Positions 330-62,157 of a stretch of DNA of 64,000 bases are shown here, piece after piece. Origin of the DNA: Psammoneis japonica. Its lineage: Eukaryota. The position numbers and the translations under genes are program-made. The DNA lies in assembly GCA_008632985.1 (NCBI GenBank), contig QPGO01000083.1:1-64000 (forward strand), given 5' to 3'. The notes under the pieces are model-generated. The model worked only from the letters and a program-made list of their open reading frames with translations, was not told the origin of the DNA and ran no database searches. Within the stretch, counting starts at the first letter, position 1; every line of letters starts with the position of its first letter.

Positions 330-1990
330 CTTTGCTCGAAACCAGTCACACTCGGCACTGCACGCATCCTGCACAGACCCTTCACACAAGGTGAGTCACT
401 TGTGTCAGGGCCAGTTGCACTGGTCTCAGTCATGTGGAACTCCCGCAGCCCATCGTGGCACTCATGCCGGCAAGAGTCGCATTTTCCACTGCACGCACTT
501 CTGCGGGGTCAGCGTCACTGCTGACAGCCTGCAGATGCAGGAAAGCAGCATCATCTTTGGCTGCAGCAGGGATGCCTGCTGCAGGAGTGCCATGTGCCGT
601 GAGTGATCTGTGATCTTACAGTCAGTGCACACGAGAGAAGCAACAGCTTTGCTTTGCAGCACTGGCGCGAAAAAGAGTTTGTTGTGTTCTTTTGCGTGTG
701 TTGCACGGTGGACCATGCCGGGGGAGCGCTGACTTTGCCAGCAACAAAGGCAAAGAGCAAGCAAAGCATCTGTCTTGAGGGTGCATGCATTCTGTTTGGC
801 AATGGCTCTGATGTGGAAGCTTTTTGCAGGTGGGTGAAAGCTCCTCAAGGCAAGAACTTTTGCAAAGAAGTGGGCAAAGACCCCCCCCATCATCTGGAAG
901 AAAAGAAGAGCTGCAGCAAGTTTGGCACAATGAAGAAGATGACTGTGCCAGCTGCAGTTGTCAGAACATTGGTGCCAGAGGCAGTCTTTGCAGGACAGAG
1001 AGGCAATGTTGTTGATGCACACCCCATTTTTCCATGGGACGATTGTGCGTGGGATGCCGATGCAGTGTGAGACACACTGACAATTGCAAGCAATGTGGTG
1101 AACTCAGGTTTGTGGCTCGGGTTGCGGGAAGCTTGGGTGCAGCTGGCTGACTGTGAGTGCCAGAAGATTGGCCTTTTTTGCTGTGTGGAATTGTTCACTT
1201 TGACAAACACAAAAATGCTTTCAAGTGGAGCACTTTCTTGGTTGCAACAGAGCACACTGCAGCACACAAACACAGAGCACATCAAAAATCACCTCTGCTG
1301 GTCTCTCCAAGTGACAAGCTCTCACGCACGAGCCACCCTTGGTTTGCCTCAGCAACGCATCTGTGCAAATTTGCAGAGCTGAATTTCTCTCTGAGTCGCC
1401 CCCTTCACGCCATTGAGGCACAGTTGCAGAAATCATTTTTATTTGGTTGCAACAAGAGCCGGTTTGAGCACACACAAAAAATTCAGCAGGAGAGCCAGCC
1501 CTCTGTCATGAGCTGAAGAATCCATCTGCCAGCAGCATCTTGTCGTGCTGGGCCTTTTGGCAGGTCCCCGAGTGTGTGCCAAGGTGAGGAGGAGAGCAGT
1601 CTCACACAAAAATTGGTGCAAGTGCTGATGGCTTGTGGCAGTGCCACCAGAGCTGTGGTTTGCTCACAGCACTGCTGGTTGTGGCTGCTGCAGAGCTGAC
1701 AGCACCGGGGGGGCTTCTGATGAGCAGGCTGCTGTGTGCCTGGAGAAAAGAGTGGCACCCTCAGGGGGCATCCGGCATTGAATGGACAGCATTGAAACTG
1801 TCCAGGAAATGACTGGCTGTTGTGTTGTTGTTCTTCAGAAGAATGAGAGGTGAAACAGCACTCCGATGACCGTGTCGTCATGTTGCTCCCAATGAGCAGC
1901 GCAAGGTCCAGCACACCACAACTTTCAACAGAACAGAATGCGGAATCTCTTTTGAGGACTTTCGAGGTCAGCAGACTGCGGAGCACTGCC
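330..1990. mobile_element. Unclassified TpA-depleted (hypermutated) repeat-like domain
   Basis: Near absence of TA, excess TG/CA and many overlapping Cys/His-rich spurious ORFs. No recognisable protein motif; the TE origin is inferred only from composition shared with identified TEs. Confidence 0.35.
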
Positions 1991-2001
1991 CGCCGCGCTT
2001 G

Positions 2002-2065
2002 AGTAGCACACCGGCAGCTAGCTAGCTAGCTAGCTACTGTAGAGAGTACGGTAGGCCAGTAGCTG
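2002..2065. repeat. (AGCT)n/TAG-rich tract at the left border of the PLD gene island
   Basis: cagctagctagctagctagctactgtagagagtacggtaggccagtagc, directly after a TA-free domain. Confidence 0.8.
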
Positions 2066-2130
2066 CTGCCCGGTCCCCCGGTCCATCCAACGAGGGAGTG
2101 CTTGTTCCAAAGAGACAATAAGCACTCATC

Positions 2131-3649
2131 ATGAACTGCTGCAATAGCATTGAACAGAATATAGATTATGACTACCCAAGGCTAGAATCTCAGGCGCTGC
2201 AAAAACAAGATACCGCAGACACCGTTCTTGGAAAATTAGCGTCCGAAATGAGTGCCAACAAGCCCCTGAATCAATCCGGCTTTCGATTTCTCGTGGATGG
2301 AACAGACGCTCTTGCGACGAGACTATTGATGGCACAGAAGGCAGAAAAGAGCATCGATACACAGTATTATCTCATGAAGGATGATGTAGTTGGAGGTGCT
2401 TTTTTGTACCNNNNNNNNNNNNNNNNNNNNNNNNNNNNNNNNNNNNNNNNNNNNNNNNNNNNNNNNNNNNNNNNNNNNNNNNNNNNNNNNNNNNNNNNNN
2501 NNNNNNNNNNNNNNNNNNNNNNNNNNNNNNNNNNNNNNCCATTTCAACGCAGCATTCTTACCGAGCGATCCATTGCGGGGACCGCACGTGACTTTGATCG
2601 CATTAATCGAAGAATGCACAACAAAACCTTTACCGTGGACAATCAAATGACTGTGTTGGGAGGACGAAACATAGCAGACGAATACTTTGGTGTTAATGAG
2701 ACGGCCAAGTTTCACGATGATGATGTCGTGGCGGTCGGGCCCGTGGTTCAGGATGTGTCTGCCTCGTTTGATCGATATTGGAATCATGAGACAGCCTTGC
2801 CGGCACTTGCCTTTTGCAAAACGCTCAAAGATCCCAATGCCACGTACGAGACAATTCGAAGCAAACTTGAACATGGTATTGAAAAGTTTAAGGACTCAAA
2901 GTATGCCGAAGTGCTTCGTTCCAAAAAAAAGGACGATATCCTTTCTCAAGACTTTCGCTGGGCGCCATACCAACTTGTGGTGGATTCTCCAAACAAGGGC
3001 GTTCCGAGCCGTGCCCAGCGGCTGTCTGTTAAAATTACAGAGCCCTTGATTGTGTCATTGGAAAAGGCACGGAAGAGGCTCATTGTCGTTTCCGCGTACT
3101 TTGTGCCGACTGAAAAAGAAATACAAGAGTATTGTGAGTCCCAAGAGAGTGGAGTTGAAATTATTATAATTACAAATTCACTTGCGGCCAACAACATGTT
3201 TATGGTTCATGGGGGCTACGCACCCGTGCGAAAGCCACTGCTCAAGGCTGGTGTCAAGATTTATGAAGTCCGGGCAGATTCACAAGTTCCAGGATCAGAG
3301 CATGTCAATGCCAAGAAGAACGCAGTAACGACGCTTCACACCAAGGAATTCTTCGTGGACAGCACGGAACTCTTTATTGGATCGTTTAATTTTGATCCAC
3401 GTTCGGAGGAACTCAACACGGAATGCGGAGTGATTATTCGTGACTCCTACCTTACAGACAAGCTTTCCCAAGAGTTGCTGAAGCGTTACCGGCTCACACC
3501 TTTGAACTTTTCTGAACGACAAGGGTAGACTGCGATGGAGAGCAATGGAAAATGGTACTGAGACTGTCTATCGACGGGAGCCTCAAACATCCGTTCTTCA
3601 ACGTGTGCTTGGAAAGGCAGCCCGAATCGTGCCTGCTAGTCAGCTGTAA
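2131..3649 (+). CDS. Phospholipase D superfamily protein, bacterial cardiolipin synthase ClsC/YmdC-like
   Basis: Two HKD motifs (MHNKTFTVD...GGRNIADEYF; LHTKEFFVD...IGSFNFDPRS.ELNTECG). The ORF track ends at 3528, but the family-like C-terminus (LFLNDKGRLRW...REPQTSVLQRVLGKAARIVPASQL*) continues to TAA at 3647-3649 after two apparent 1-nt deletions in short runs (~3471, ~3510). Assembly gap at 2411-2538. Confidence 0.9.
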
Positions 3650-4038
3650 GATTGAGAAATTGCAACCAAGAGGAGAGAACAATGGCGCCGCCTGAAAGCA
3701 GTCATTGAAGTACCCTCGGCACTTCGGCTTCTATTGGAGGAGAGTGATCAAAGCAATTTTTTGATAATCTTATTATTCTTTTGTCCATATATTCAAATCC
3801 TTCACCGAAAACTCCGACAGCGCCTTCTCCTCCATACGAAAACACATCATGCCAAATCCTCTGCCAACACAACACCAGAATCATTACAAAGAGTCACACG
3901 CAAATCCCCAATCAAAACTGACACAAATGCCGACTTCTATTCCGCCTACCAGCGTCGATTCGCACTGAAGGAGAACCAAAGCCACTGTCCATGATCCCAA
4001 GAGTTGCCCAGCATCATTCCACGTTACAACCACGCACT

Positions 4039-4150
4039 CTAGCTAGAGAGCTAGAGTAGACCTCTACTAGAGAGAGAGTAGCTAGCTACAGCACTAGCTA
4101 GAGTAGCTACTTCTACTACATAGAGAGTAGAGTTGGTTATAGCATATATT
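4039..4150. repeat. CTAG/TAG-rich low-complexity tract toward the right border of the PLD gene island
   Basis: ctagctagagagctagagtagacctctactagagagagagtagctagctacagcactagctagagtagctacttctactacatagagagtagag. Confidence 0.8.
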
Positions 4151-6915
4151 TGGACAAAATATGCTATCAATATATGATATCCCAGTCCAAAACGCCACCA
4201 CTATTTTTCCAATCATCCCTAAATAAATGTTTTGCCGTTGACAGAACTTCGTTAAACATCGCGGGCATACGTAGGGGAGTATGAAATACATAAAGGAAAA
4301 GTCGCGTCGATTTGCAGTGGCATTTCAAGGCTTCTGAATACCGGTACATATGAAACGAGTTTGTCGCAGTCGGGGGCCACGAATAATCAATCGCCGGCAC
4401 GCTTTTTTCGGGGACATTTTATGACTAAGCGCGGGTTGGGGACATGCTCTATCTCGTAGAATCAGTGCGCTTGTCCCAGCCGTAGCCTCAAAACGCACCG
4501 CAGACAGAAAACAACATGCCATTTTGGCAAATGACACGAGAGACGACGATTTCAATTCCAACAAAGCCATTGCAATGCTCGTAACACCTTGCTTTACATG
4601 CACAATGTGCTCGCTTGTGCCAAATTTGAATCTTGAGATCCATGAATTGGCCACAAACGTGGGATGCGAAAATGGCCCATCACTTTCATCACAACCCTTT
4701 GACAAGCTTTCAACCACCGCATCATCTCGCATTTAATGCCTGTTGACATTTCATGTGATTGTCATTGTTGATTGTTTTGTGTTTTGTGGTGACACAAATC
4801 GACACAAAGATTGGTGATCTCGGTCTTTCATCGCGACAGCAGTTCTGGTGCTGCGATTGCAAAAAAAGCTCCTTGAAAGCTCCACACACAATGCAGCAAG
4901 CTTCTCTTGTGCAGAGAACAGAGAAGACATCCTGCAGCTCATCCACCCTGCATTCGCCATCGTTGCAGACCCGAATTTTTCAGGTGCCGTTTTTGAGTTT
5001 TTTCGCTTGAACCCTCCTTTTTCTCAACTGTCGCTTCAACTTCAAGACTCGGGCCACCATGACAAGGTCGTCCTTGTTGTGTTTCATGATTTTTTGAGGG
5101 TGGATTGTTGAGAGAGTCCCAGAGTTTGTAAAATGGCAGTCGCATCATCATCAAAGTCCCAAAATTTGCGCATTTTTGGGATGCGAGTGTTTGCATGCCA
5201 ACAAGGTGAAGAAGAAAATGTGTGGTCGGTGGCAAACAAAGAGCACAATTGTTGCAAGATGTTTTGAAGCATGGAGAACAACATTCTAATGTCACTTGAG
5301 GGCTGCAAAGGTTTTAGCAATTTAGTGAGGGGGGTCAAAAAACCACCTCAATTGAGGTTTTTACCTCAGTTGAGGTGCTTGGCAGACCAGACACTGGGCA
5401 GGACAGCAGAAAATCAACATTTACATTTGTTCAGAAACTTTTGGATTCAGCAAATGACTTGATTTTCACCGATGCACTTCTGGGTTTTTCCCAGTCTTTG
5501 CCGGGTTCATTCTGTTTTGGGCACCGATTTTGGGTGTTTTGCCATGGTGAAGCACAACGACAATGACGGTTGAAATGCACAGCAATGCAAGTGGGGCGGT
5601 CAAGCACCGACCATGGGAATCTCATCAACTTGGTGTTGTGTCACACGTTTCTGGTGTTGGCACTTGACAGCCCCATTTGCATTGTGATGAAATTGCCGAT
5701 GGCATGTTGTCGTGGCCGATTTTTTTTCTTCTGCTTCTGCATGGAATTCTGCAGCCTTTTTGCACTGAACCATCAACCAACATCCTTTTTTTCTCGTCTC
5801 TGTTGACGCAAGTGAGTTGTGAGTGCTTCCTTGTTGGTGATGAGGAAGCCATGATGGGATGGAATCATGCCCCTGAACAAATGTGTGCAAGAGTCACAAG
5901 GATTGTGACAAGATCACAGTGAATGGTGGCAGCACTCAGCTTGGCATTGTGGGGCATCAAGGTCTTCCAAAACAACTTTGCAGCTGGAGAGTTGCAGACA
6001 TTTCTAGTTAAAATGGGAGCAGCTGTTTACAGTCACAGCCAGAACAGTGTCTGGTGTTTTGTGCTTCTAAAAGCGATGGTCAAAGTGTGCCGCGTGAGCA
6101 TCAGAGACCAGAAGCTCATCAAAAGCCATGTCTCATCCTTTCGTGGGAGAGTCTGGTTGAAGTTTGTGCTTTGTGTCCTCATTCTGCAAGTTTTGCTGCA
6201 CACACACTTGAAAAACTCATCAAGTTCAGTGTGAATCACAGCATGAGTTGCAACATTCTCTTCCCAACCAAGCAGTGGCGGTTGCACTGGAGATCGCGTT
6301 GCGCCATTGCGCTCAACATTTCTTGGCAACCTTCCAACTCCTCCAAGTCTTGATCTTCTGTCTTTGCCTGAATCCAGAATGTTGCTGCACATGTTGTCAG
6401 CTTCATCACACATGTCCATGTTGGGGCTGTCCACAATGCCCAAGTGTGCAACAGTGCAGTGTTGAAGAGGGGCAGGGCGTTTGTTGCAACAACAAACACA
6501 ACAGCAACAACGTCGTGAAACTTTTTTCTTTTTTTTTGCTCTCTTTGCTCTCGTGTTGGAGGGAGAAAATTCCAACGGATGCTTGTCCGTGAATTTCTGC
6601 GTGACTCCTGCAGTGTTGTTTTACACAGCACATGCAACTGAGGAGCATGCAAATTGTGTTCATGCACAACAAACATGTGATGTCCGTGAAATCCGAGCAG
6701 TTGGAGCATGCAGTGTCTTGCCTGCACAGTTGAACATCTGAGCCTGTGGCCAGCAGCTCTGGCAGAGAGCTGCTGCAGAGCTCAGAGCTGCAGCAGCTGG
6801 CAGCAGCAGCAGCAGTGGTGTGCACCAGGCACTGGCCCGTCACAGCCAAAATTCCACCCAAGCAGCATTTTTCCACTGGAAAAGTGGAATTCTCATGTGG
6901 GGTCAGCACTTTCTA

Positions 6916-6976
6916 AAAAATTCTGCTGTACATCCACTGTTTGTTCCACTCAGGTGGAAGGCACAGCAGAATTTTT
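6916..6976. repeat. Inverted repeat / hairpin
   Basis: aaaaattctgctgt (6916-6929) and acagcagaattttt (6963-6976) are exact reverse complements; pairing extends imperfectly inward. Confidence 0.75.
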
Positions 6977-7499
6977 GGAGCCAAAAAATCTGCCCTGCGT
7001 GCCCCTTTTGTGTGATCTAAATCATCTGTCCTTGGTGAGGTCGGGTGCAACTGCGTGGACAAAAAAATGCTGAAAGTTCCACCGTCTCAATGCGGCATCT
7101 CAACCATGAGCTTTGCCACATGCAAACCCAGCAAATGTGCCAATGCCAGCTGCACATCTGGCGGCATGGCAAGCAGCACTCACAGGTGTCTTGAGTGCAG
7201 CAGAAACATTCATGCTCCTTGTGGGGAAAGCAGACGGATGACTTGCACCACTTTCCACTTTGACAAGCTCCAAAGCACCTGTTTGAGATCACTGTTGTGA
7301 GTTTTGTGTTTAAATTGCACTGAACAATTGCATTGGCTTAAAGAACAATCAGCACCTCATCGCACTTCCTCCAGCTTGACAAGAAAACAAGCTGCTCCAC
7401 AGCGCCAAAGACACGACCAAGGGTTGCCACCGTGGATCTTTCCAGACTTTTCCACATCCTGGGCTTGAGACGCATTTTGCAGCAACTGTTTGGTCCACA

Positions 7500-8270
7500 A
7501 TCATTGTGGTGCTTTTGCTGCAATGGGTGCCAAGTGGACCTGTGGGGGATGGCAAGACAGTGGAAGCAGCAAGGGAATGACTGTGCCACACTTGGGGAGC
7601 ATCAAATGCACAAAAGATGCAATGTGCAAAACAAACAAACATGCCCATCACATTTTCAACACTTTCATCAGCAAATTCTGTTGTTCACACCTTTGCAGCC
7701 CAAGTGCCAAGCTTGATTGTGAATGCTGCTGTGTCAGACTCGGCAGTCCTGTCAGCGCCTTCTCTGGGAGCAAAAGTCTTGAAACACCCAAGAGGTGAGG
7801 AGCAGCAATAAATCCACTGCAAGCATCATTTTTTTTCACAATCACATTCATCCACAACCGTGTTCATGCCATCGCTGCAATGGGTGCTGGGCAGACCTGT
7901 GAGTGATCACAAAACAAGAGCAAGAGTGAGAGAAAAACTGCGCAACAGAAAAAAACATCAAACGCCCAAAAGACAGGCTTTGCAATGAATGCAAACACAA
8001 CCATGAGTTTTTTAAAGCTCACTTTAGCAAGTGTTGGCATTCTCACCTTTGTCCTCAAATCACCGAGTGCCGTAGAAACATCAATGCTGCTGCCACCACC
8101 GCGCTGGCACCGTGTGTTTTTTCTCTTGCAGCGAAAGTCATCAAACACCCAAAAGCCCAAAAGGCAAGGGCAAGCAAAAAATCCAACAAAAGCATCGTTT
8201 TTTTTCACAATCGAGTTGGTCAATGTTGGCGTTCACACCTTTGCTGCAATGGGTGCTGAGTGGAACTGTG
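7500..8270. repeat. Degenerate tandem repeat, ~365-bp period
   Basis: gctgcaatgggtgc recurs at ~7517, ~7874 and ~8243. aagcatc.tttttttcacaatc precedes the second and third copies. Confidence 0.7.
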
Positions 8271-9934
8271 GGCATTCAAAGGCCATGGTCCAGGTGATGG
8301 CACAGTGTTTTTTTTAGCATCGCTCACTTCGTCTTGGAGTTTTTTTCGGCTTCAACTCCTCGTGTGGGTTTGCGCAGGTTGGTCACTGGCATGCAGCTCC
8401 TTTGCTGATTGCTGCAGGTTTGTCTTCTTCCCCGCAGGATGAGCACCACTCTCCACAGGGCAGAACTGAGGGCAGATTTTTTTTGGATGCATTGGCCCGG
8501 TGTTGTGCCAACTTCATCTGCATGCTCGTGCAAAAATGCAACCTGGCAACTGTCCATCATGTGCTGATTTGCAATGGGCACTCTCACCTGCACAGCACAA
8601 AAAAAAACACACCGCACCATGGTGTGCTAACTTTGGAGGCCTGCCACTGTCTAACCAGAATGATTTGACAACAAGCGATGCATTGCACAGTTGCCATTGA
8701 TGCCACAAAGCATGCGATCACAGGTTGAAATTTTGATTTGCGCCTGTCGCTCACTGTGAATTGTTCCACCAATGCATTGGATGATTTTCACATTGAATTG
8801 TCTGTCAGCCACACGATGGAACTTCAATTGAAGCTGCTGAAGCTCAATTTGAATGACACCAAGTCAACAGCAAAGGTTTGCCCTGACATGTCAAAGTTGG
8901 GGGCTTCTGTGGTGCTCTCGAGATCAGTCATTGGATGCTTCAGCAACTTCAGAATCGTGGACAGAATGATCACTGATTGCATTCCACTCAGGAAGCAGTG
9001 CCAACATTTCGAGCAGCAAAATTCTAGAATGCACAGCATTGGGAGAGGGAAGAACAAAAGAAAAAATGTGAAGAGTTTGATGGAGCAAAGAAACAGCTCT
9101 GAGTGAAAATGACAGTGTTGAGCAGCCAAAGATGCCATGCACCAATCAAATCCAGAGTGGACCCCTTCTGCACATTCTGTCATGCCTCCACACCCACCAA
9201 TTCCAGTTGCCCATCAACAGCGGAGCTCAACAAGATGCCATGGAAGCAGAAGGGAGCATCCCAGCTCTTGGTGACACCAGCTCAACCCCAGCAGCTGCAC
9301 CCACCGCTGGCAAGGAAAAGGACAGCACCAAGACACAAATTGCAAAGTTTGTTCGGGATCTCCTCGAGGCTTTTTTTGCAGATGACAGCACATGTGACAC
9401 AATCCAATTCAAATCAAGAAGTGCAACCCACGTCCCTCTTGACTGCTTCACATTGTGAATGAGAATGTGGGCCTTTTTCCAGCAAGAGGAAAAGCAATGA
9501 GAGCTTGTTGGTGGTGGGGGTGTCGAGCCGCAAAAGAAGAAGCACAAAAGCGGAGCCAGTGCACAGTTGGTTTGTCAACAAGTGGACAAACAACTGATGG
9601 AATGATGCATTCTTTTGTTCAAGCGAGTTGAAAAGTACATTGATGCAGCCCGGCATCCCAACCCATCAAATCAACAACCTGGCATCCATGTGGTGCATCT
9701 TGTGTTAAGTGAGTTGTGCCAAACAATCACCAACGGGGTGCAACCCACTTACAACCAGTCTCAAAAGCCATTTCTTCACCCTCTGGCATCATCAACAGAA
9801 GGAGCAAGAAAGTGCATGATGGCATGCTTGAATGCATTTCAGTCTTCTGATCGAGAAGAGAGAGAAAAGCACGTTCTCGCTGTTCTGTGTTCTTGCTGTT
9901 CCATTTGCAGGTGACAAGTTGAAGGACCCAGATG

Positions 9935-11580
9935 ACTCACACGCACGCACGAAACCGAAGCTAAAAAACTCGCACCATGGCACCGAAATGCTGTGGTGGC
10001 TCTGGCGGGAGGAAGAACTCCTCACCACGCAAAGGAGCCAACAAGAAAAGAGGCAAAGGCCAAAATGGCAGAGCAAATGAACCGATTGATCTAACCAACA
10101 ACGAAAACGAGAACGAAGAATTCACAACTGTAACGCACAAGAACTCCCGCACAAATTCTGCGCAAAAAACACAAATCAAGAACCCATTCGTCACTCCTCA
10201 GCAACATGAACATCACACCAGAAGCAAAGGGGTGACCTTCAAGGAAGATGACTCAGAAGATGACGAAAACATCAATGACAAAGATCACATGGAAAGTGAG
10301 GAAAGCAAAGAAAAGAGCAACCATGGGAAGATGGACCCACGAAAGATGCAACTGCCAAACCTCCAGGAACAGATGAAATTGACGACTCTGGAAATGGTAA
10401 AATCTCCAATCCCAATCCATCACTGACCAGCAAAAACCATCTCGACACTTCTGTTTTGGTGGACAACAAAGAAGAACAACAAGAAGAACAGGAGTCCTCC
10501 AGAGTTTCAAACAACCCTGCGGGGAAATTCCAACCAGCCAACATCACCAAGAACAAACAGACTCAGAAGAAGAAACCAAAGAAGAACAATCGGAAACTGA
10601 AGATGAAGATGAAGAGGAACAAGTTGAAGTTCCATGCGCTCCAATCAAGCACAACGTTTTTGTCACAAAGCCACTGAAAATGGCAGCGAAACTCACCCAA
10701 CAAGGCTTTGAAGTCATCCAACAAGTTCTGGGAAGCAATGCATTCATCGGCACGTGGGACCCCAAACTTGAAGAAACATTCAGAGTTTGGCTTGCTCCAG
10801 ATGACACACCAGAAGGAAAAGCTCAGGAAAGAGAGACACACTGAGCGTCTTTCTTGGAGTCAACTGCTTGAAACCTCGACCAAACCAAAAACACACAATG
10901 TGCTGCCAAGATCGGTTTCTCACCACCGGCAAAGGACTGGACCACATGACAGGTTGTGACTGTGGAGCAAAGTCATTGGGAGCATTTGAAGATGTCGAAG
11001 GGGGCAAGTTCGCCATTGGATGACATCCAATGCCTTGTCAATCTACAAGATCTGAATGCATCGGATGCTGTGCATGAGCACGAAGACCATGAACAAAAGG
11101 ACAATCTCCCACAAATTCTCCCAAGCCCTTGGCATGGAAAACAAAAGAGACTGTCTTGGCTTTCAATGGAGAGCAATCACTGAGCCAAGTGGGAAACGCC
11201 CGACTTTTGACATAGACAAACCTGACAAGAATCCAGAGAAGCGCTGCACATGATCGTGGAAGCACACCACACTCAAGTGAAACTCGCAGCAGAACGTCTG
11301 TGGAGAGTTGAAGCAACGAAGCTGGTTCTTGGATTGCATGTGAGACACATCCCTTGCCACTCATCTCCTGCAATGCAAAGTGCACCTGATGACATCCAAC
11401 ACGATGCAAACAAACTTGCACAACGTCAACACTTCTTTTGCAAACAGGTCATCTCCAAATGGAGTGTGGTCTCATTGCAAAATTAGACAACTGCCTGAGG
11501 CAGGAAACCAGTGCAAACACCTGTTGCACTGTGGCAGTGCATCATGCAGAAGCGTGTCCCAGATCCAGAAGACCCTGTGA
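9935..11580 (+). mobile_element. 3'-truncated ORF1 of a LINE related to the element at 12241-20390
   Basis: Shared 5' leader (aagctaaaaaa.tc.caccATGGC). N-terminus MAPKCCGGSGGRKNSSPRKG vs MAPAKCRNAGGKKNTSPRKG; AAERLWRV...QHFFCKQV vs AAERLWRV...QHFFCQKV; KRVPDPEDP vs KRIPDPTDP. Confidence 0.8.
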
Positions 11581-20390: not shown

Positions 20391-20399
20391 TGGTCCAAC

Positions 20400-21848: not shown

Positions 21849-21852
<4 letters not shown>

Positions 21853-21898: not shown

Positions 21899-21899
<1 letters not shown>

Positions 21900-40377: not shown

Positions 40378-40841
40378 CGCCCTGTTGTCTTTTCAATTGC
40401 TGCAGTCTAGTCGTAGCTGCGGGCACCGAGAGAGGATGCGAAACAATAACGGAGAAAGCAACGGACGCTGATGCTCACTGCGACAAAATGACGGAACCAC
40501 GAGTGCACATGCATGGCACTATTCGCAGCTAAACTATTGACTTGAATACTACATGCTTTTGAAACACGGAGCGAAACTTTTTGTCGTTCAAATGAATAAG
40601 CTGAACAACAGTCGTCCTAGTCCTCTTCCGCTGCGACGTACAAGTCGTTCGCTCAAACTATATACAAGAAAATCTGCTAACAAATATGCACAATAATGAA
40701 AGGAGCTGTCATCCGAAGGCCCAATGAGCTTCCTGGCGGTAACGGGCGATCACTGGATCAAGAAGTTGGATCCTCGCTGCGCGACTCGTTCTGGCTAAAT
40801 GAACATGCAAAATGAAGATCATGCCGCTCTTCGCTCTTGGC

Positions 40842-50687: not shown

Positions 50688-51231
50688 AAGGCGCTGGATG
50701 TCGCATGAACTACGTAGTTAAATGGAGTTCGACGTGCCTTTAATGCACCGATGTAAGAATCAGTGTAATGGAAACAGTGCCTACGATGGGCAAATGTAGT
50801 AGCTGCCGGTAGAAGAGTCGCGGCACGGTGAGGCAAAAAAGCCCTCTCGACAGTCGCAGCTTGCTTGCTTTAGAGGCACAATAAAGTCGGGCGAACAAAG
50901 CAAGGATGCTCATTCACTCAGCCATTGTCACAGCCAGTTCTGCTGTATCGTTGTCTACATTTTCGCTGTCAATGAACACATCACCAGCTGGAACAATGGG
51001 GAAGGGAGGAAACACAGTTTGTCCGTGGTGGCAGCTGTCAAAACACGCATCTGCTGTGTTTGCCTCCCACAATTTGTGAAGGGAGGAAAAGCGTGAATGG
51101 ACAAGGAAACAAAATAAAGTTCAAGTGAAGGCTGGTGGTTGCATTTTTTGATGCATTTGGGCACTGCACCAAACTCTGCTGGAGCTGCACAACCAGCAGC
51201 TTGTCACAAAGTGCTGCCATCGCTCACCTTC

Positions 51232-51278
51232 TGACAGAGATCCCTGCATCTAAGCAGGAATGACACGATCCACTAAGA
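51232..51278 (-). repeat. 3' LTR (47 bp)
   Basis: tgacagagatccctgcatctaagcaggaatgacacgatccactaaga; 44/47 identical to 55437-55483. Confidence 0.9.
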
Positions 51279-54200
51279 CCCCCACACACTGGGAGAATCG
51301 TGACCCCTGTGAGTCTGGGTGCACTGTTCTTCTAGTGAACAGTGCAGTGGTGTGTCATTGCTGCCATCTAGCACGTGGGAGGGATGGTGATGTCCACTCC
51401 CAAATGTCGGAAGAACAGGATGCGTGCCACATTTTTGGTGAGCATGTTGCTGCAATTGGCTGATGTGTCAATGCGATCCAGTTGAACTAAGTCGTGTTCG
51501 ACCCAGTCTTGAAGAGCAAAATGGCGAATGTCAATGTGGCGGGTGCGGCGGGTGGGTTTGCTTGTGGTGGCCATCTTGCAGGGATGCATCATTGTCTTCG
51601 TACACCAACGCAGCTTGCATCTGGGGGACTGACAGTTCATCCATGACAGACCGGAGACACAGTGCCATCTTGCCTGCATTCAATGCAGCGACAAACTCAG
51701 CTTCCGATGAAGAGGTTGATGCAGTCAGTTGCACTCTGGTCTTCCATGCTGTTGCGGCTCCCGTGAGGAGAAATGCAATGCCGGCAATCGAGCGGCGGTG
51801 TCGGATGTCGGCAGCCCAATCAGAGTCCTTGTAACCTGTGAGTTCGGCAGGAGATGATGCCTGAGGGGGCAAAGGCACACGGTCATGGGGCACAGTCATC
51901 GGAGGTGGAGGAGGAACATGGGGGAGCGTCAGGTTGGATTGTTGATGCCAGCGTGCAAGGCCAAAGTCGGGGTGATGCTTGAGGCACCGGAGAGAGTTCT
52001 TCACACCTTCACAGTGCAGTTGTCCAGGATTAGAGCCGAGTTGGCTCAGCTTGGTGATTGAGTGGCTGAGATCCACGTGGGTGGCAACCATGGCCCACAT
52101 CAATTTGCCAACGGCCTTCCAACAAGAGAAACCCTGTTGTTGTTGAAGGGTTTTAGATGCCTTGGAGTCGGCTGGAGTGGGAGCCTCATCAAGGGATTTG
52201 GAGCAGGAGGTGTCGCCGGGCATCGGGATGGCGGGAGGCGGGCTGAGTTTGTCATCGGCCAGGAAAGCACAGTCAGCCAAGATCCTCTTGATGCTTGAGG
52301 TGCTGTGCAACCGGATGTGGTCTTTGGTCTGTTCAACATCATAACCCAGAAACAGGGTGAGCAAGCCCTGACGTTTGATCTCATCACCGGTGAGATGTTC
52401 ATCCACAATGTCGCATGTGCGTTGACATGTTGCGTCCGAGTCCACAGCAACAGCAAAATCATCGACTTGCCGCAGAAATGGCGCCTCTTTGCTGTTCACG
52501 GTGCCACTGTAGATGCATGGTTCATGGGTGGTTGGGGCAAGATGCAGGTGTTCACGGACAATCTCATCCACATGCATGCTCCACAAGCGGGGAGATTCTG
52601 GATGGCCTTGGAGAGCTCAGAGCACAGGCAGTGCGCAGCCCTCAAGGATGGGAGGGCGACCCAGGTGTTTGGTCCACCAGTTTTGAAAAACTTCATCCAC
52701 TCTCATGTGGAAACATTGCTTGGGAGGAGGAGCCTCAGCGAAGGCGTCACTGACATCCGCACCACACCCGTTTGTTCTTGGGTGCTGCCAAAGCAAAGAA
52801 CAGGCGAATGCTGGGTTGCTCAACAGACGCTGCGCATGTCTGTGCCATTGTCTGGACAAATCCAGCTCTGGGGCTGCCATTGCATGCTCCATGGGCCTTC
52901 TTGGCACGGGCCAGATTGTTCTTAACCAAGTGGGACCACACCCATGGGAACACTGCGGCTCCCGGAGGGGCAGGAATGGGGTCCCCAAACATGCCTTGGC
53001 TGTTGTACATGTCAAGCTGTTTGAATTCACCCAATTCCCAGTCCGGCCAGTCTTCCTGCATCTGGAGTTTCCGGCGTGTGAGCTTGTACAATGAAGGGAG
53101 AGCAGGGTCATGTGGGGAGTCTAGCTGATGGCGGACATGGTTGATCTGGTCCAAAAACAGTTGTGGCAATCCTGCAGCATCCAAGGTCGGTGACCGGCAG
53201 TCATGGGCAAAGCGGAGAACAATGTCCTGAGTGTCTGGATTGATGTCTTCTAACACACGGTCGAGGTCAGTAAAATCATGGACAGGCCGAGTGTTGACTG
53301 CGATGAGGCATGAGCGTTTGAGTTCGGATCGCCATCATGGTGTTCTTGCCGCCTGTGATCCAGGGCAACAGTGACGGAGTCGCAGTCGATGGCGGCGGGG
53401 GTCACAGTCAAACTCAAAACCCAATCTTGGTTTTCTAGACCCGCGGCTGGGCAAAGGTACATCAAAAGAGTCGTCACACGGATCGAAGGACATCGCAACA
53501 TTGGCAACGGATTCGGGGGTGACGGGGTCCTTGGATGCAAAAGCAGCAGCCATCGCGTGACATTGGGCATTGGGAAACAACGTGTTTTCACCAAGCGGCA
53601 AACCCTGGATCAGGCTCATCAGGGGGGGGGGTGGAGACAAGCCTTTGTGAGCACAAGGGGGGGATGTGGTGCTGGGGTCGCTGGCTGGGGTGGAGGCGGG
53701 GATGGAGGTGCAACCTGTTGGATTCCGAGATCGAATGAGAGCTGTGGACCAGGAGGTCCAATCGGTTGAGAGAAGTGTGCCTCGTCATGCGTGGCATGCG
53801 GAGTAGACTTCTCTCATCTGGACGTGGCATTCACATGGTGCACATTGCCGTCCATAGCCGAGTGTCCAATGAAGACACCGTGGAAGGCATGTTTGTCCAA
53901 TTTAGCAGCCGGTTTGCCAGGACGCCAAGCACACATGCAAGATCCAAACGCTCGGAGATGTGACAAGTCAGGAACCTCACCCGTCCATGCCTGGTGTGGA
54001 GTCACATCTGTGGCAGAGTGCCACAGCCGGTTCTTGAGGTGCACCACGTGGGTGAGTGCATCGGCCCAGTGTGTGGCCGGGAGACCCGATGAGCACAGCA
54101 GAGCTCAAACCATTGCTCCAAAGGTCCGATTCAAAATCTCGACCCTGCCATTCTGCCACGGGGCGTCCACGCCGGCAGGCTCCACGACACAGTCGTGTTT

Positions 54201-55436
54201 CAGGCAGACCTTCCGGAATTCCTCAGAGTGAGCCAATTCACCACCTTGATCTGCCCTGACCGCGCAGGTGCCATTGGTGTGCTTGTGCCAAGCTGGGAAG
54301 GCATCCACCAGTTCAATCGGTGGGTCCTCACTCGGGGTGAGGAACACCCACGTATGCTGAGTCTTGGCATCCATGACGAGCAGATGCGAATTGTGCCCAT
54401 CACGTGATTGCACAATGCGCTCAATGCCTTCCTTGTCGCACTGTTTCTTGAGCGTGGTTTCATGTCTGGCCCAGAAGCACGCATGCACCCGCAGTCCATC
54501 TGGAATTGCACCGCTGGCTCCAAGTCCGCATCGTCCTGTTGGGATCCCATGGGGGCGCGCCCATGCCAGGCATCATTGCATGCAGAGCATGATCGATGGG
54601 GATGAGGTGTGGCATCAGCGGACGACGGGACACCTGCAGCATGTCGGCACAGGTGCGACAGTTGGTGCATGCCAGGGTGACCCAGGCGATGGTGCCACAG
54701 TTTGCTGGTGGCGATGCATTGAAGGGAGGACAGTTGTGGTTCTGGATCATCGGACGGGCCCTCACTGTGGCTGGGATGCTCGGGGACAGGGTCCATGGGT
54801 GCAGGGGATGATGGGACATCCGAGTCAAGTTGTTCGTATTTGCTGGGAGGATCAGGCACATCGAACTCACATCCAAGGTCTCTCGATGTCAGTGGATGCA
54901 TCTGCAACGTTCGCATTGCACCCTCCAGTTCCGTGCAACCGTCAGTCAGGGGTGCATCAGGGCAGAGGCGCGGGACAAACCATGAGCCGTTTGCGCGTAC
55001 CATGGGAAAAGACCGGACAAGTGAACGGTCACAATTGGTCACTGTTGACATTCCATGTCCAGAATCCTGAAAATGCGAAGCATGGCATTGGTTGCACTGC
55101 TCTAGCAGGCACCATGGTGATCGACAATGAAAATAAAAATCGATGTCATTGCACCATGCAGGGGCAGTGTGGATCGGATCTCTGTGGCATGGACCCAAGG
55201 AGATCGTGATGTGCGTAGAAGGCACACTGATGCCCATGCAAGCAGCCGCAAAAACAAACGGCAATGGCGTGAATCAGTGTCCAACAAGTGGACGTCATTG
55301 TCATTGACAGAGCGGCAAAGTTTACGATGCAAACGCTCTCTGCCGGTGTCGTCGATGATGAAACGAGAGGAAAATGTGTTGTCAGCAGTGGTGGAGGAGC
55401 CTTGCTTGCACGTCTGTGTAAGCGTTGCTCACAACC

Positions 55437-55483
55437 TGACAGAGATCTCTGCATCCAAGCAGGAATGACACGATCCACTGAGA
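55437..55483 (-). repeat. 5' LTR (47 bp)
   Basis: tgacagagatctctgcatccaagcaggaatgacacgatccactgaga; bounded by the TSD and the PBS. Confidence 0.9.
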
Positions 55484-55488
55484 CCTTC

Positions 55489-56060
55489 CACTGTTTTGTG
55501 GTGCCAAAGTCAGAGTTGTCTCTTTGTTGAGTCTCATTGTGCTTGTACATGAAGAGAAGTCTGGGGAGTTTCAGCAACTCAAGTGGATCATCCCCAATGC
55601 TGGGGACAACTGGGGCTGCCCTGCACTCTCTGCTTCATTTGCTTGGTGCAACAGCCATCTAAAATCTTGGTGAATGCAGCTGTCTTGTTCTCTTTGAACT
55701 GCTTTGCTTTGTCACAGCAGTCAGGCATTGTTGCTGTGGACACTTTTAAGGTGGGCTTTTTGAAATCAAAATCATTGCATTTTACATCTTCAAAAGACCT
55801 TGCCACAGGTGTGCCTTGCTCACACACCTTTTGAGTGCAACAGATGATCTTCTTGTCCTTGACATCTTCCTGTGTGGCATTGCATGCTTTGCTGTTCAGT
55901 GATGAAGGACAAAAGTTTATCACAGGCTGAAAGCTCTTCTTGGTGTTGGTCTTCTTTTTCAGATTGGAGCACCTGTGACTCTTGCCACCTCTGCCACCAT
56001 GACTGCAACTTTGGCCTTGGCTGCTTGTTCTGGTTGTGGGGGTTTAAAGTGCTCAATTGG
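55489..56060 (-). mobile_element. Older gag-like remnant into which the Copia inserted (probably continues at ~51226-50950)
   Basis: KQFKENKTAAFTKILDGCCTKQMKQRV...LLKL..LF pattern resembles LTR gag. TA- and CG-depleted on both sides of the TSD. Confidence 0.4.
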
Positions 56061-56809
56061 CTGCATGCAGGTCATTGACCATTGCATCAGAGAGGTGTGT
56101 GGGTGGACAATGTAATGAAAGAGCAGGAGCAGGAAAATGCTGCAAGCAGAAGCTTGCTCTCAACTGACATCAACCTGAAGTGCAGTGTTTGCACTTCTTG
56201 AGTTACAGCAGCCACCATTGCTGTGCAACTCAGGGCCCCTGCACTGTGTGCNNNNNNNNNNNNNNNNNNNNNNNNNNNNNNNNNNNNNNNNNNNNNNNNN
56301 NNNNNNNNNNNNNNNNNNNNNNNNNNNNNNNNNNNNNNNNNNNNNNNNNNGCAATTTGTGGGACAGGCATCCTGTTTGTGGTGCTTGGCATGCAGTGCAT
56401 TTGTGTGCAGATTGCTCGGCCAGAGACAGACCATTGAGAGGCAGTGGTCTGTGCCCCTGATGCATGAGTGGGGGGTTGTTTTCACAACATGCTTCACTCC
56501 TTGACACTGGTCATGTTGCAGAAGCAGCATGCGACAAGCCTGTGAGTGCTGAGTGGAGCTGCAGCAAGCTTGCTCCTCACACAACCCCCTGTTCACAAAC
56601 CACAAGTGCGTCATGGCAGAGAGTGGAGCACACACATTGCAACTCAAAGCAATGGAACAATTGGTCAAATCTGCCTGCTTGGGTGCCAGTGTTTTGCCAC
56701 ACTTGCTTTGACATGATTGTTCTTCAACGAACTCCACTTCTCACAATTCTCAAATTGCACAACAAGAGCAACCCAGGATGACCAAACAACAAGAACAAAA
56801 GCTTGCCCC

Positions 56810-57870
56810 ATGTGCAGCATCAAGACCAGCGACAAGGACAAGGAGGCCCCTCAAGGTGTTGCCATGACTTTTGTCAGAAGCAACAAACTCAAGCAGATGA
56901 AGTGTCTTCTTACCTTCCTTGGAGCCTGTGCATTGGGCTTCTCATTTCCACCATTTGCCTTGCCATCAATTGCAACAATTGTGATGATGACACCAAGGAG
57001 ATTTGGAGATGTAAGTTCCATTGCTGTCTGAAGGACCCAACCCATGTGCTGGCAAGAACCCAAGTCTGCAAAATGTGCCTTGCAGCATGACAAAAGAACA
57101 GGCCAGCACCATTGTGACTGAGGGATGTCATGGCAAGTTCAAAATGACCACAGTCCCCATCACCACCTCACATGCTGAGGCTGGCTTGTGCCTGTCAGTG
57201 TCCACTGGCACACTGGTGCAAAGCACCTCTCAGCAGGTGAGTGTGATGAGCAAGGCAAAAGCCTGTGCCATGACAATGGTCATCATGAACTTGCCAAATG
57301 CGCACGCCATGGTTTCAAGTGGTGTCATGTCTTTGACAAGAGGAACCCCAAATTCACCACTCCATTCAACTGTCAGCACTGCATTGGTTTGGAGGTTGGT
57401 GAGATCTGCAAAGTGCACTGGCCCAATTCAGTTGCCCGAAAATGTGGAACGGCCTGTCAGCGCCACAGACTGACTTTTACAATGGAGTCTTTTGCACCGA
57501 TGTCATTGCCAAGATTGGTGCTCAGGCCCAAGTCTTTGTCATTGTCAATGATGAAAAATGCTGTGACTCTGACCTCTTGCATGGCATGATTGTTGACGGT
57601 GACAAGGGTGCAAACGTTGCTGTCTGTGCGGGTTCCATCACAGGCATGTCACACAACAAAAGCATTTGTTCTCAATGCTCACCCATGGTGTGGCAGGCAG
57701 ACCACAAATGTCATTTGATTTCTGCCTTGAGCTTTGACAAGCTCTGCCAAGACATGAGAGGTTGCAGTGTAATGACATGCATGATGACGCGCATCCTCAC
57801 GGTTCTCAAGAGCTCATGGTGGACGAGCATGCCACCAACAACCACCAGACCATGCCTCGTCGTTGTGCTG
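56810..57870 (+). pseudogene. Hypermutated delta-carbonic anhydrase pseudogene (diverged paralogue of 23919-25013)
   Basis: Frameshifted segments KLKQMKCLLTFLGAC; EGPNPC.GK; PITTSH.EAGLC/PVSVHWHTGAKH; PKFTTPF.CQHCIG; VHWPNS; GMIVDGDKG; WQADHKCHLISA.SFDKLC; HPHGSQEL.VDEHA.NN. Confidence 0.93.
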
Positions 57871-58588
57871 GCTCTTTGTGCTTCAATGTTTGTTGCAGCA
57901 CAAAAGGAGTGTCCACATGTGTTTCATCAGTGTGTTGTTCTGTTTCTTCATGAGCATTGGCCTTCGGGGGGCAGCAGAGTGGTCTGTTCATTCCTTGTTT
58001 TTGCCAAGTCAATGGCATTGTGTTTCCACCCCAAGCTTCATCTCTCCATTTCTTCAGGGTTTTCCAAGAGATTCACAAGGCCCTGTTGGTTTCATGTGTC
58101 CCAAGCATGCACACAAGACCTCCTCTTTTCATTGCGCGCTTTCCCATTTGCTCAACGAATCATTGCGAGCAAGCCATTTCATCAAGAAGTTCGTTGAGTT
58201 GCATGTGCCTCCTACATAAATCTTGGCACAAGCTTCGTTATGAGAGCAGCATCTCAAGGGCGTAACTCTCCTCTCATCAAGCTTGATCCATCGAAATCCT
58301 CTCTAGTATTTCTTCCATGGAGCTGCAGAACGTTTCGAGCGCACTGCGGCAGCCACCATCCATTGTTCTTTCCACATCCAGGAACTCTCAAGCTGTGTCC
58401 ATCATGTTGTGTATAACACATAAATAGTCTTGCACACACGTCTCTGTCACTCTTTGTATTGTGCAGCCTTGGCTCGCTGTGCTTTGAACGAAAAAGAAAG
58501 AACGTCACTTTTGCATCTCCCATCAAGGGTGATCTTTTGTACGACTACAGTATGAAAAGTCGAAAAGTGCAAAAAGTGATTTATTGAG

Positions 58589-59854: not shown

Positions 59855-60029
59855 GATGTAGTAGAGTCAATCCTGCTGTGCAAACAGCAAACAGCATCGC
59901 AGCAGCGCAAGCTGTCGCTCAAAAGCTAAGCGGCACATTATGAACATGAAAGCCGTGCACTGACCGTCGTCCGGTGATTTGTCGATGGGCACTTTCACTC
60001 TTGTCACCAAAAAAACGACAATCGCTCGT

Positions 60030-61260
60030 GACGACGGTGATTCTTGCCCTCTGTCGCTCGCCACCTTCTCTTCTCTTGTGACCATTGTTGAACTCCACGA
60101 GCAACCTGACCTTGAGCTGGAGTGGTCATCTGTGGTGGGAGGGATGCGTGAATCGGAGGCAAAGCTCCAACAAGCAGAGAGCCACCACCCGATGGGAGGA
60201 AAATGCTGTGCAAAAGAAGGAGAAGAAGAGAGAGAGAGAAGAGTCAAGAAAGGGCAGAACATGTGCGTCAGAGTGAAAGGTGCTGCCAAGCAGTGGCTGC
60301 GGAGATGAAGCTCCTGCTGCTGCAAGAAAAGAGCCACGGGGGTGGCTGCAGGTGCTGGTGGTGTGGGCAGCAACAAGCAAGCTCGCTCTTTGTTCATCAA
60401 CACGCAGCATGAAATCAATGAAAAGAAAAACTGGGCTTGCAGTGGCTCATCATGGGTTGCTTGCAGAGCACTGCTTCCATGTGCAGTCATCTGCCATGAA
60501 AGCAGCTCCTCGAAAGTGAGCCCCCCCCCTGTGTGAGCAGGAGGGAGGTGCGGGCTGCTCTCTCCTGTGTTGGTTGGTCTCCTGTTTGCAACAAACAATC
60601 TCATGATGATTGCCCTCCATTGCTTCCCACCTTGTCTTCTCTCATGGCCAGTGCACTCCCTGCTGAGCTCTCTGGTTGGTTGTGGTGTGAGCCATGAGAA
60701 ACCAAACCCTGAGGTGGAGCGGTCATCTGCGGGGGCCCTGGAGACAAAGCTCCTGTGCAAGAGAGCCACAGGGGTGGTTGGTGCAAACATCAAGCAAACT
60801 TGCTCTCTGATCATCAACACATGACATGACATTGATGAAAAGAAAGAGTGGGCTTGCAGCAGCTCATTTTGGTGGGTTGCTCGCAGTGCTGAGGATGCTG
60901 CTTCCAGGCACAGAGTTGTCCACCACCAAAGCAGCTCCCAAGTGAACCCCCCTGTGAGCAAGCAGGAGAGGGAGGCACAGACTGATCTTTCCTGTTGGTC
61001 TCCAATCTGCACCAAATAATCACATGATGATTGCCCTCTGCCGCTTGCCACCTTCTCTTCTCTCATGGCCAGTGCACTCCCTGCAGAGCTCTCTGGTTGG
61101 CTGGGGCATGAGCCATGAGAAACCAGCACCTGCAAGAGAGCTGCCACACAGGAAAAGAAGAAAAAGAAAAAAAAAAGAGACAGCTGGAGAAGGGACAGAA
61201 CATGTGCATCAGAGTGAAGGGGGCAGCCAGTGGCTGTGGTTGAGGCACTGTGCCAAGGAC
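60030..61260. repeat. Degenerate modular internal repeats (~420-bp period) in a TA-depleted domain
   Basis: catgatgattgccctc...tcttctctcatggccagtgcactccctgc.gagctctctggttgg...gagccatgagaaacca at ~60602 and ~61023. gagccac.ggggtgg...catcaacac...tgggcttgcag at ~60331 and ~60763. cagaacatgtgc.tcagagtgaa at ~60255 and ~61196. Confidence 0.8.
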
Positions 61261-62157
61261 TCATGAGAGAGGAAAAGAAGACACAGGGGGAGCTGCAGCT
61301 GTGTCAGACAGAGCCAGCAGACCAGCACAGAGAGAGCAAACAAGGGCAAACTCAACTAGATGGCTCACAAGGCAGGGAGCACACCGACCAAGCAAAGTTG
61401 CACACCTCTGGGAGGGTGCCTGGAATGCAGTTGATTTTTGCTCCTGCATTGCGCAGAGCAACTGCAGCAGTGATGTGGCCAGAATGCAAAACCAGGCAGA
61501 AGATGTGCTTGTGCAAGCAGTGCACCAGGTCCAGACGTGCTTCATTGCAGGAGGTCTGAAGAAGATCGATGATGTGCTTGCCACAATGGAAATTGCAGCA
61601 GCCCAAGGCGTCCACCCAGCATGCTCCCAATGGCTCATGTGAGGGGATGCTGAGGCAACAAGCACACCAAATGATTGCCTGCATGGCCTCAACAGGGCAG
61701 AGGAAGCCCTCCTGATGATGACAGCGATGAACAGAGAAATTTTCTTTGCTCTTGTCACAGTGGAAACGCACGTGCACTTCATTGGCGTCAGCCACCAGGA
61801 CGTGTTGAGGGTCAATGGGAGTGCACATCCAAAGCACTAAATGTGAAATCCTCTTCGATTAAGGCCGGAGGCATGCCGGCCCAGTCTCCTGCTTCTGGCG
61901 CAGATGGCTCAGACCGTTGCCTCTTTGATTTGTTTACGATTGAGTTAGCATGACACTGTAGCCAGTTTTCTACCCGCTGGGTGCCAGCTAGGGAGTCCAC
62001 GGAGTAGACAAACATTTGCCTCATTGACCGACGACACTGTTGCATCTATCTGGGGCAAAAATTACTAGACTATGGGAACAGACAGATGTTATATGAATAG
62101 CGTTGTGCTAACTTTGTTACTCGAGCCACATCATGGACTGAGAACGACCCACAGTTC

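Follow-up and report, generated by a model that had tools for sequence, protein, structure and literature searches.

Directional loss of TpA dinucleotides in gene-poor, transposon-bearing domains of a diatom contig

Gene islands and TpA-poor domains of the window

The window analysed here, 64 kb of contig QPGO01000083.1 (positions 1 to 64,000) from the Psammoneis japonica assembly GCA_008632985.1, consists of gene islands of ordinary composition and six domains in which the dinucleotide TpA (TA) has been almost completely replaced by TpG (TG) and CpA (CA). That the window is from a diatom follows from its gene for a diatom pyrenoid shell protein, and the closest named relatives of its delta carbonic anhydrase are also diatom proteins (54-61% identity; unnamed metagenome proteins reach up to 77%). 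The protein collection thus contains no close relative of this diatom. The features of the window are given below, where O/E is the observed/expected ratio of a dinucleotide and CA<->TG denotes a site that reads CA in one copy of a repeat and TG in the other.

301-2000: TA-poor domain 1, with 2 TA in 1,700 bp.
2122-3528, + strand: PLD-like gene (Pfam PLDc_2), intact and with normal TA (12 TA in 2641-3060).
4501-21600: TA-poor domain 2, degenerate repeats, Pfam-negative at E <= 0.001 (TA O/E 0.02-0.14 in 17 one-kb blocks).
9935-11489 / 18971-20372: inverted repeat pair in domain 2, with 21 CA<->TG double differences.
23919-25052, - strand: delta-carbonic-anhydrase gene (Pfam CA_like, E 7e-49), intact and with normal TA.
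25601-39780: TA-poor domain 3, with the Gypsy remnant, a Copia SH3-like piece (35505-35816, + strand) and tandem repeats (37704-38282).
28433-30816, + strand: Gypsy pol remnant (Pfam RVT_1, RT_RNaseH_2 and Integrase_H2C2; rve under its cut-off).
28433-28870 and 29017-30816, + strand: reverse transcriptase (RT) and RNaseH-integrase parts of the Gypsy remnant, the latter a stop-to-stop open reading frame (ORF) of 599 aa.
35505-35816 (+ strand), 53817-54104 (- strand) and 54203-55273 (- strand): Copia remnants (Pfam SH3_retrovirus, gag_pre-integrs).
39748-40377, + strand: partly mutated duplicate of the PLD 3' fragment adjoining domain 3, 94% identical to 2945-3773.
42651-48650: TA-poor domain 4, with the strongest CpG (CG) depletion (TA O/E 0.03-0.09, CG O/E 0.03-0.32).
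50951-58180: TA-poor domain 5, with Copia remnants and a delta-carbonic-anhydrase pseudo-copy (TA O/E 0.05-0.20; CG O/E 0.46-0.67 in the Copia part).
57156-58194, + strand: degenerate delta-carbonic-anhydrase copy in the transposon nest (Pfam CA_like in two frames).
60001-61800: TA-poor domain 6, with 2 TA in 1,800 bp and a tandem duplication (60301-60704 / 60740-61125).
62161-63999, - strand: diatom pyrenoid shell protein gene (PF25192 DiatomPyrShell, E 6.7e-50), with normal TA.

Over the whole 64 kb, O/E is 0.20 for TA, 0.47 for CG, 1.63 for CA and 1.59 for TG. The window is bimodal, with about 4 TA per kb in the TA-poor DNA and about 27-46 TA per kb in the DNA between (300-bp bins). The six domains, which pooled amount to 48,010 bp and three quarters of the window, were compared with six normal (gene-island) segments of 14,800 bp pooled. 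The domains contain 218 TA where 3,048 are expected (O/E 0.07, a 14-fold depletion), compared with 595 observed and 977 expected in the normal segments (O/E 0.60). CG is depleted as well, with 992 observed and 2,925 expected (O/E 0.34; in the normal segments 763 and 844, O/E 0.90), and TG and CA both have an O/E of 1.73 (1.21 in the normal segments). The four pyrimidine-purine dinucleotides add up to the same total, 241.1 and 241.8 per kb in the poor domains and the normal segments, respectively; consequently, TA and CG have been converted to TG and CA via transitions. The frequency of ApA/TpT is also unchanged (76.2 and 75.5 per kb, respectively).

When the poor domains are cut into one-kb blocks, TA O/E is 0.20 or less in every one of the 48, whereas their CG O/E ranges from 0.03 to 0.67. 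The domain edges are steps of at most 100 bp. At position 2000, for example, the 2 TA of 301-2000 are followed by 10 TA in the next 100 bp, and near 39780 a stretch devoid of TA (39400-39799) gives way to 3-5 TA per bin. The depleted regions are thus delimited within otherwise normal DNA (TA O/E 0.07 against 0.60), and they are recognisable as transposable elements (TEs) only in part. An earlier note on this DNA, made from its letters alone, had described TE nests nearly without TA on the strength of hand counts per 420 bp. Its four counts (2, 1 and 2 in the nests and 12 in the PLD gene) are exact, and the description holds both for the pooled domains and for every block.

A Pfam scan of 274 stop-to-stop ORFs of at least 90 aa (E <= 0.001) found the Gypsy and Copia remnants as the only TE matches in the poor domains. 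These two families of the earlier note are confirmed, while the LINE (long interspersed nuclear element) and DIRS-like identities it had also proposed found no match among the 274 ORFs at this threshold. A laxer scan returned only zf-RVT (E 0.4) and RVT_2 (E 0.078), and the LINE-candidate ORF at 13768-15021 (- strand) has no relative at E <= 0.001. The search for long terminal repeat pairs gave none for Gypsy and only a 59-bp match around Copia. In contigs of a public sequencing run, the word depth adds up to 1,700-16,800 over 27.5-32.2 kb, compared with about 50 in unique DNA, which indicates a Gypsy family with hundreds of copies.

The loss of TA is also reflected in the stop codons. Per kb and strand, TAA is found 2.1 times in the poor domains and 8.1 times in the normal segments, TAG 1.3 and 9.1 times, and TGA 23.7 and 19.1 times. 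The near absence of TAA and TAG leaves many long false ORFs in this dead DNA, and the pol frame of the Gypsy remnant is open for the same reason. The window contains 30 stop-to-stop frames of at least 200 aa, mostly without a family match, and where long ORFs lie in the poor domains, they result from the mutation as a by-product.

Two blocks of the poor domains, 20501-21500 and 42651-43650, have C far above G on the + strand (423/144 and 392/136 per kb; GC skew about -0.35). They underlie the long open frames 20220-21728 (+ strand) and 42875-44113 (+ strand), both without a Pfam match. Either the two blocks belong to a single family that has gone unrecognised, or a process with a strand bias has shaped them; both are possibilities.

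Direction, strand and timing of the change

The direction of the change can be read from the Gypsy RNaseH-integrase ORF, which was aligned with 120 homologs from metagenomes, 42-51% identical to it. In the 14 columns in which Tyr is at least 70% conserved, the window has His in nine and Cys in five and retains no Tyr, while conserved Trp is kept in 13 of 13 columns. The 599-aa ORF lacks Tyr altogether, as the earlier note had remarked, compared with 3.9% Tyr in the homologs; Cys makes up 6.7% of its residues (1.4% in the homologs) and Ile 2.8% (7.2%). The replacement of Ile by Thr, Val or Met, of Leu by Pro or Ser and of Val by Ala is as expected from ATA, CTA, TTA and GTA codons. Conserved Arg has become Cys (5), Trp (2) or His (1), as expected from CGN. 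The motifs LNVGHHHI, TCSDDLL, PWGKHEMQ and WHHE stand where the consensus reads GYYH, YIDD, GKYEY and WYH. Over the whole of pol, 33 positions have Tyr in at least three of five references, and at these the window has His 15 times, Cys 15 times, another residue three times and Tyr never. On a single sense strand, TAY codons have therefore turned into CAY and TGY in equal number, and throughout the poor domains the two products are nearly balanced, with 5,127 TG and 5,240 CA. That TA changed to TG and CA, and that both products arose on the same strand, had been claimed before from a reading of motifs; the conserved Tyr codons now establish both points, and the host-gene copies described below agree on the direction. 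The same approach was attempted for Copia with 37 weak relatives and gave 39 conserved columns, none of them a Tyr column.

Two of the 120 Gypsy homologs, P0186 and P0212, themselves have 2 His and 3 Cys, and 4 His and 2 Cys, respectively, at the 14 Tyr columns, a hint that other sources may contain copies mutated in part.

It could be argued that the elements are TA-poor by nature, through codon usage, horizontal origin or selection against a TA-cutting activity, and with hundreds of Gypsy copies indicated by depth, a TA-poor master element is possible for some sites. The relatives of the Gypsy element speak against this. Of the 77 metagenomic relatives fetched, 75 have a TA O/E of at least 0.59, and the family is thus not TA-poor by nature. 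In addition, each conserved Tyr is replaced, including those of the RT YxDD and integrase motifs, the integrase core falls under its Pfam cut-off, and the same loss is seen in pseudo-copies of host genes. Native TA poverty is refuted for Gypsy and the host-gene copies, and as a general explanation it is next to untenable.

The two relatives that are depleted, L069 (TA O/E 0.20) and L056 (0.34), demonstrate that the signature exists outside this assembly. In L069 (1-2417), the 2,000-bp pol part contains 7 TA and the last 417 bp contain 20, again a sharp edge; its 24 Tyr positions have His at 10, Cys at 4 and Tyr at 1, and its CG O/E is 0.80. L056 (1-4761) is a metagenome contig with a relative of Gypsy pol that likewise combines TA loss with replacement of Tyr by His and Cys.

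These contigs also bear on the possibility that the signature is an artefact of sequencing, base calling or polishing in repetitive DNA with modified bases, for example through misreading of such bases in heterochromatin and lack of polishing in repeats. Such an artefact might be suspected because the effect is limited to repeats, where polishing is weakest, and because the only public run containing the stretch (70% of sampled words) derives from one sample, possibly the assembly's own source, with its platform unrecorded. A 1,807-bp word-based contig from run X1, with a word depth of 58 as in genes, nevertheless matches the unique TA-poor stretch 26176-27983 save for 6 letters, and public-run contigs span the domain edge at 25.5 kb. 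Public-run contigs at 80% likeness (3,626 in number) show 1,780 differing places, with 300-350 transitions and 39-63 transversions per class. The earlier note had raised the artefact as a test of its own claim. The X1 contig and the metagenome contigs, which come from other records and share the change of Tyr to His and Cys, the TA loss and the sharp edge, agree in arguing against it, with the limit that the run may share the assembly's source. Furthermore, in a preprint on another alga, Bigelowiella natans, Illumina mutation-accumulation data show the process to be real in that species (Mettrop et al., bioRxiv 10.64898/2026.01.13.699255). We regard an artefact as extremely improbable.

Evidence on timing and substrate comes from five repeat pairs in the window (one inverted, two tandem duplications and two dispersed), which together comprise 2,868 aligned columns. 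Their adjacent double-transition differences number 109, of which 73 are CA<->TG and the six other classes account for 4-9 each; in the tandem duplication of domain 6, 10 of the 14 are CA<->TG. The excess is explained by an ancestral palindromic TA or CG that was resolved independently, to TG in one copy and to CA in the other. The mutation thus occurred after the copies had separated and, as the tandem duplications show, on DNA. This is in keeping with the claim of the earlier note that the process acts on genomic DNA.

A different order of events, in which retroelement RNA (by A-to-I editing) or single-stranded cDNA (by adenine deamination) was hyperedited and then inserted, would suit the fact that the recognisable elements are retrotransposons. 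ADAR-type enzymes also favour U before the edited A, according to the preprint (10.64898/2026.01.13.699255, Discussion), and the animal systems of ADAR (A-to-I in repeat RNA) and APOBEC (C-to-U in cDNA) resemble the present case in producing clustered transitions in mobile elements. However, these systems act on RNA or single-stranded cDNA, are strand-asymmetric and are fixed at integration, whereas here both strands are affected, after separation, and in DNA other than retroelements as well. Instead of A-to-G change on one strand, we find both products in equal number on one sense strand and nearly as many TG as CA overall. Host-gene fragments and diverged tandem DNA duplications carry the footprint, all 48 blocks are alike depleted whatever their content, and the domain edges leak into host sequence. 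ADARs are also not known outside animals. Editing before integration is very unlikely.

The two host-gene copies allow a comparison with intact paralogs in the same window. The degenerate delta-carbonic-anhydrase copy (compared over 57156-57848) has CA at 5, TG at 4, TA at 1 and another dinucleotide at 8 of the 18 TA sites of the intact gene, and TG at 8, CA at 8, CG at 5 and another dinucleotide at 14 of its 35 CG sites; TG is unchanged at 43 of 52 sites and CA at 40 of 62. In the PLD fragment beside domain 3, 7 of 23 TA have become CA or TG, and five of these sites lie no more than 230 bp from the nest; the reverse change is seen at 2 of 91 CA/TG sites. The mutation leaks a few hundred bp past the domain edge into this fragment. 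The intact PLD and delta-carbonic-anhydrase genes keep their TA despite mutated copies in or beside the nests, and the latter retains 11 of 14 conserved Tyr columns. Since the intact paralogs are spared, the trigger looks like the domain rather than pairwise homology as in fungal repeat-induced point mutation (RIP), and the target would be the domain as a tract of silenced chromatin. Of the repeat- or heterochromatin-targeted mutator proposed in the earlier note, domain targeting appears to stand.

CpG decay, flanking context and rival chemistries

Loss of CpG to TpG and CpA accompanies the loss of TA in the repeats. It is seen in the pooled CG O/E of 0.34, in the change of Arg to Cys, Trp and His in the Gypsy ORF, and in the delta-carbonic-anhydrase copy, where 16 of 35 CG have become TG or CA. 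Transposable elements of diatoms are methylated, and the decay of 5-methylcytosine (5mC) would lead to the same conversion of CpG in the same domains. It cannot act on TpA, however, and the loss of TA is faster, more uniform and separable from it across relatives: TA is saturated in the Copia part of domain 5 where CG O/E is still 0.62-0.67, and other Gypsy relatives have lost CG (0.12-0.29) and kept TA (0.62-0.90). CpG decay is a parallel, separable process, slower and more variable than the loss of TA.

TA and CG depletion are nonetheless correlated over the 48 blocks (Spearman 0.53, p 1e-4), which would suit a by-product of 5mC deamination in which T:G mismatches recruit error-prone patch repair of the Pol-eta type, with A changing to G at WA (W, A or T). 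Pol eta is known for this preference for WA-to-WG changes, and the earlier note had listed such synthesis among its candidates. The unchanged ApA/TpT frequency disfavours it, the motif being TA and not WA. So does the saturation of TA where CpG is only mildly depleted, as in the Copia part, and the two losses part company in L069 (TA 0.20 with CG 0.80) and, in the opposite sense, in the other relatives. A Pol-eta by-product is highly improbable.

The 218 surviving TA of the poor domains stand almost only in the context Y-TA-R (Y, pyrimidine; R, purine). With both strands counted, there are 74 TTAA, 64 CTAA/TTAG, 3 ATAC/GTAT and no ATAT, and normal DNA ranks the flanks of TA in the opposite order. 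The gain of RCAR/YTGY is twice that of RTGR/YCAY, which would fit a change of A to G at T-A-Y. The products disagree with one another, however: window Tyr codons that follow a pyrimidine have become His and Cys seven times each, and a purine precedes each of the 16 His of L069 and L056. The Y-TA-R survivors could reflect a preference of the process for R-TA-Y, or they could be TA regenerated by C-to-T change at CpA. Clusters of 4-5 surviving TA, nearly all of them Y-TA-R, occur at 5287-5422, 6005-6068, 17257-17348, 28882-28959 and 51251-51369.

As TpA is self-complementary, a change of A to G after T and a change of T to C before A are inseparable by sequence. The attacked base could then be the thymine, oxidised by a TET/JBP-type enzyme to 5-hydroxymethyluracil (5hmU) or 5-formyluracil (5fU) and mispairing with G, so that T becomes C. 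TpA is the site of 5hmU in dinoflagellates and of base J in the telomeres of kinetoplastids, and G is a mispairing partner of 5-formyluracil. The palindromic R-TA-Y preference suggested by the residual TA would also be in line with an enzyme that reads double-stranded DNA. On the other hand, tRNA adenosine deaminases, to our knowledge, act on A34, which is always preceded by U33, and this habit offers a ready reason for TpA specificity; relatives of these enzymes reportedly deaminate DNA (PMC10354150, cited in the preprint on B. natans). That preprint moreover names ADAT2 as a candidate. We consider thymine oxidation, the main alternative, unlikely, and prefer adenine deamination after T by an ADAT/TadA-type deaminase as the chemistry for the loss of TA, though at somewhat less than even odds.

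Known systems and the proposed mechanism

A precedent for TpA-specific A:T to G:C hypermutation exists in the mutation-accumulation lines of B. natans, as reported in the preprint by Mettrop et al. In these lines, 231 of 302 nuclear point mutations fell in two integrated viral regions, and 230 of these 231 were A to G or T to C and reported to lie on TpA. The rate was about 6e-7 per site per generation (an increase of about 1000-fold), in only some lines. The same source describes 324 TpA-depleted coding sequences enriched for reverse transcriptase and DDE domains, and proposes an ADAT2 homolog as the enzyme, which is unproven. The words 'diatom', 'CpG', 'trinucleotide' and 'flanking' are absent from the main text of the preprint. 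Our literature search, which left most subscription journals outside its reach, found no such hypermutation for diatoms. The earlier note knew of no description in diatoms, and for diatoms this holds up in that search; as a kind, the process is no longer undescribed, the same TpA-only spectrum having been measured in B. natans.

The footprint in the window resembles that case in its dinucleotide, in its two products and in its limitation to regions of foreign or mobile DNA; the changes lie on TpA and give TpG or CpA (15 TAY codons to CAY and 15 to TGY), with ApA unchanged. Long-term TpA depletion with CpA and TpG enrichment is also common to both, and in B. natans it extends to the reverse transcriptase and DDE coding sequences. 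The hosts differ, one being a chlorarachniophyte (rhizarian) and the other a diatom (stramenopile), as do the targets, which are giant-virus and virophage inserts in the former and retrotransposon nests with embedded host-gene fragments in the latter. The nucleocytoplasmic large DNA virus region of B. natans has a Rho of 0.45, whereas TA O/E here is 0.07 over 75% of the 64 kb, which is saturated. A rate was measured there; here there is a footprint only, with CpG decay alongside. The resemblance suggests that the two are the same kind of process. What is new here is its occurrence in a different supergroup, its saturation, its extent over most of a gene-poor region and the accompanying CpG decay.

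The RIP of ascomycete fungi is similar in making irreversible, dinucleotide-specific transitions in repeats, in its sharp edges with leakage and in the destruction of reading frames. Its transitions are C:G to T:A, however, mostly CpA to TpA, whereas here TpA is destroyed and CpA and TpG are made, so that TpA is depleted and not enriched. Stop codons, which RIP creates, are removed in the window. RIP is set off by duplication and mutates both copies; here the intact delta-carbonic-anhydrase and PLD paralogs are spared and keep their TA.

We think it probable that two mutational processes have acted on chromosomal DNA within silenced TE domains. The diatom nuclear genome would be a succession of gene islands and of nests made up of dead transposons. 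The first process makes TpA-specific A:T to G:C transitions on either strand (TA to TG or TA to CA); it is near saturation in the nests and has erased Tyr codons and TAA and TAG stops. Its direction, its TpA specificity, its use of both strands, its action on copies already separated and its restriction to sharply bounded domains are all shown by the data. The second would be the ordinary decay of CpG to TpG and CpA expected of methylated repeats, slower and more variable. The agent of the first process would be an enzyme acting on silenced chromatin. Its effect would be an irreversible inactivation of mobile DNA, and its role may be one of defence.

Several points weigh against this explanation. 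The evidence is a footprint throughout, in which no mutation was seen as it happened. The repeat pairs cannot separate ancestral TA from ancestral CG and do not by themselves prove the timing of the TA part; post-separation loss of TA depends on the host-gene copies, with few sites (9 and 7). TE domains can be recognised in only part of the TA-poor DNA and are missing from much of it, so that the label of transposon nest is partly an inference, and the stretch 25.5-27.5 kb is TA-poor yet near single-copy by depth. Selection on the working PLD and delta-carbonic-anhydrase copies could also have kept their TA. The flank preferences are inconsistent among data sets, and the sequence is reproduced by a run from a single sample, perhaps the source of the assembly itself.

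A directed A:T to G:C mutator at a single dinucleotide runs counter to the usual G:C to A:T bias, and has so far been measured in one protist only. Since its footprint is seen at saturation in a diatom, a member of a main group of ocean primary producers, and again in a few isolated contigs from metagenomes, it is likely to be widespread and overlooked. It is possible, though we hold it doubtful, that diatoms and chlorarachniophytes share an ancient defence mutator of the SAR (stramenopile-alveolate-rhizarian) lineage, which would read silenced chromatin and erase palindromic TpA on double-stranded DNA, possibly through a symmetric TpA base modification. If so, what methylation and decay of CpG are on the cytosine/guanine side, this mutator would be on the adenine/thymine side. 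Such a base modification would account for the preference for R-TA-Y and for the fact that both strands are used equally, and mobile elements would be killed for good, with their Tyr codons gone and two of the three stops lost.

The footprint also has practical consequences. TE domains of such genomes could be found from TpA O/E alone. Gene finders would over-call in them on account of the long false ORFs, standard profile searches miss such TEs on account of the shift in their codons for Tyr, Ile, Leu, Val and Arg, and divergence-based dating of TE copies would be badly inflated. As to mechanism, the footprint suggests that an enzyme capable of editing TpA in chromosomal DNA exists in nature, which is relevant to base editing and to the silencing of invaders by protists.

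The gene islands contain, besides the genes listed above, further ORFs in normal segments that resemble genuine proteins. One of these, at 49854-50687 (+ strand), has a sub-threshold match to the HEPN/RES N-terminal domain 1 (E 5e-4; 20.8 bits, cut-off 27.4). A second run from the same sample, X2, is very deep over the delta-carbonic-anhydrase gene within 22201-42200 (170-269, compared with about 10). Its cover is limited to the genic ends of that region, and save for one bin it has none over the TE nest (25.5-39.5 kb). This pattern would fit a transcriptome but does not count as evidence on expression; the kind recorded for the run, DNA, is a guess.

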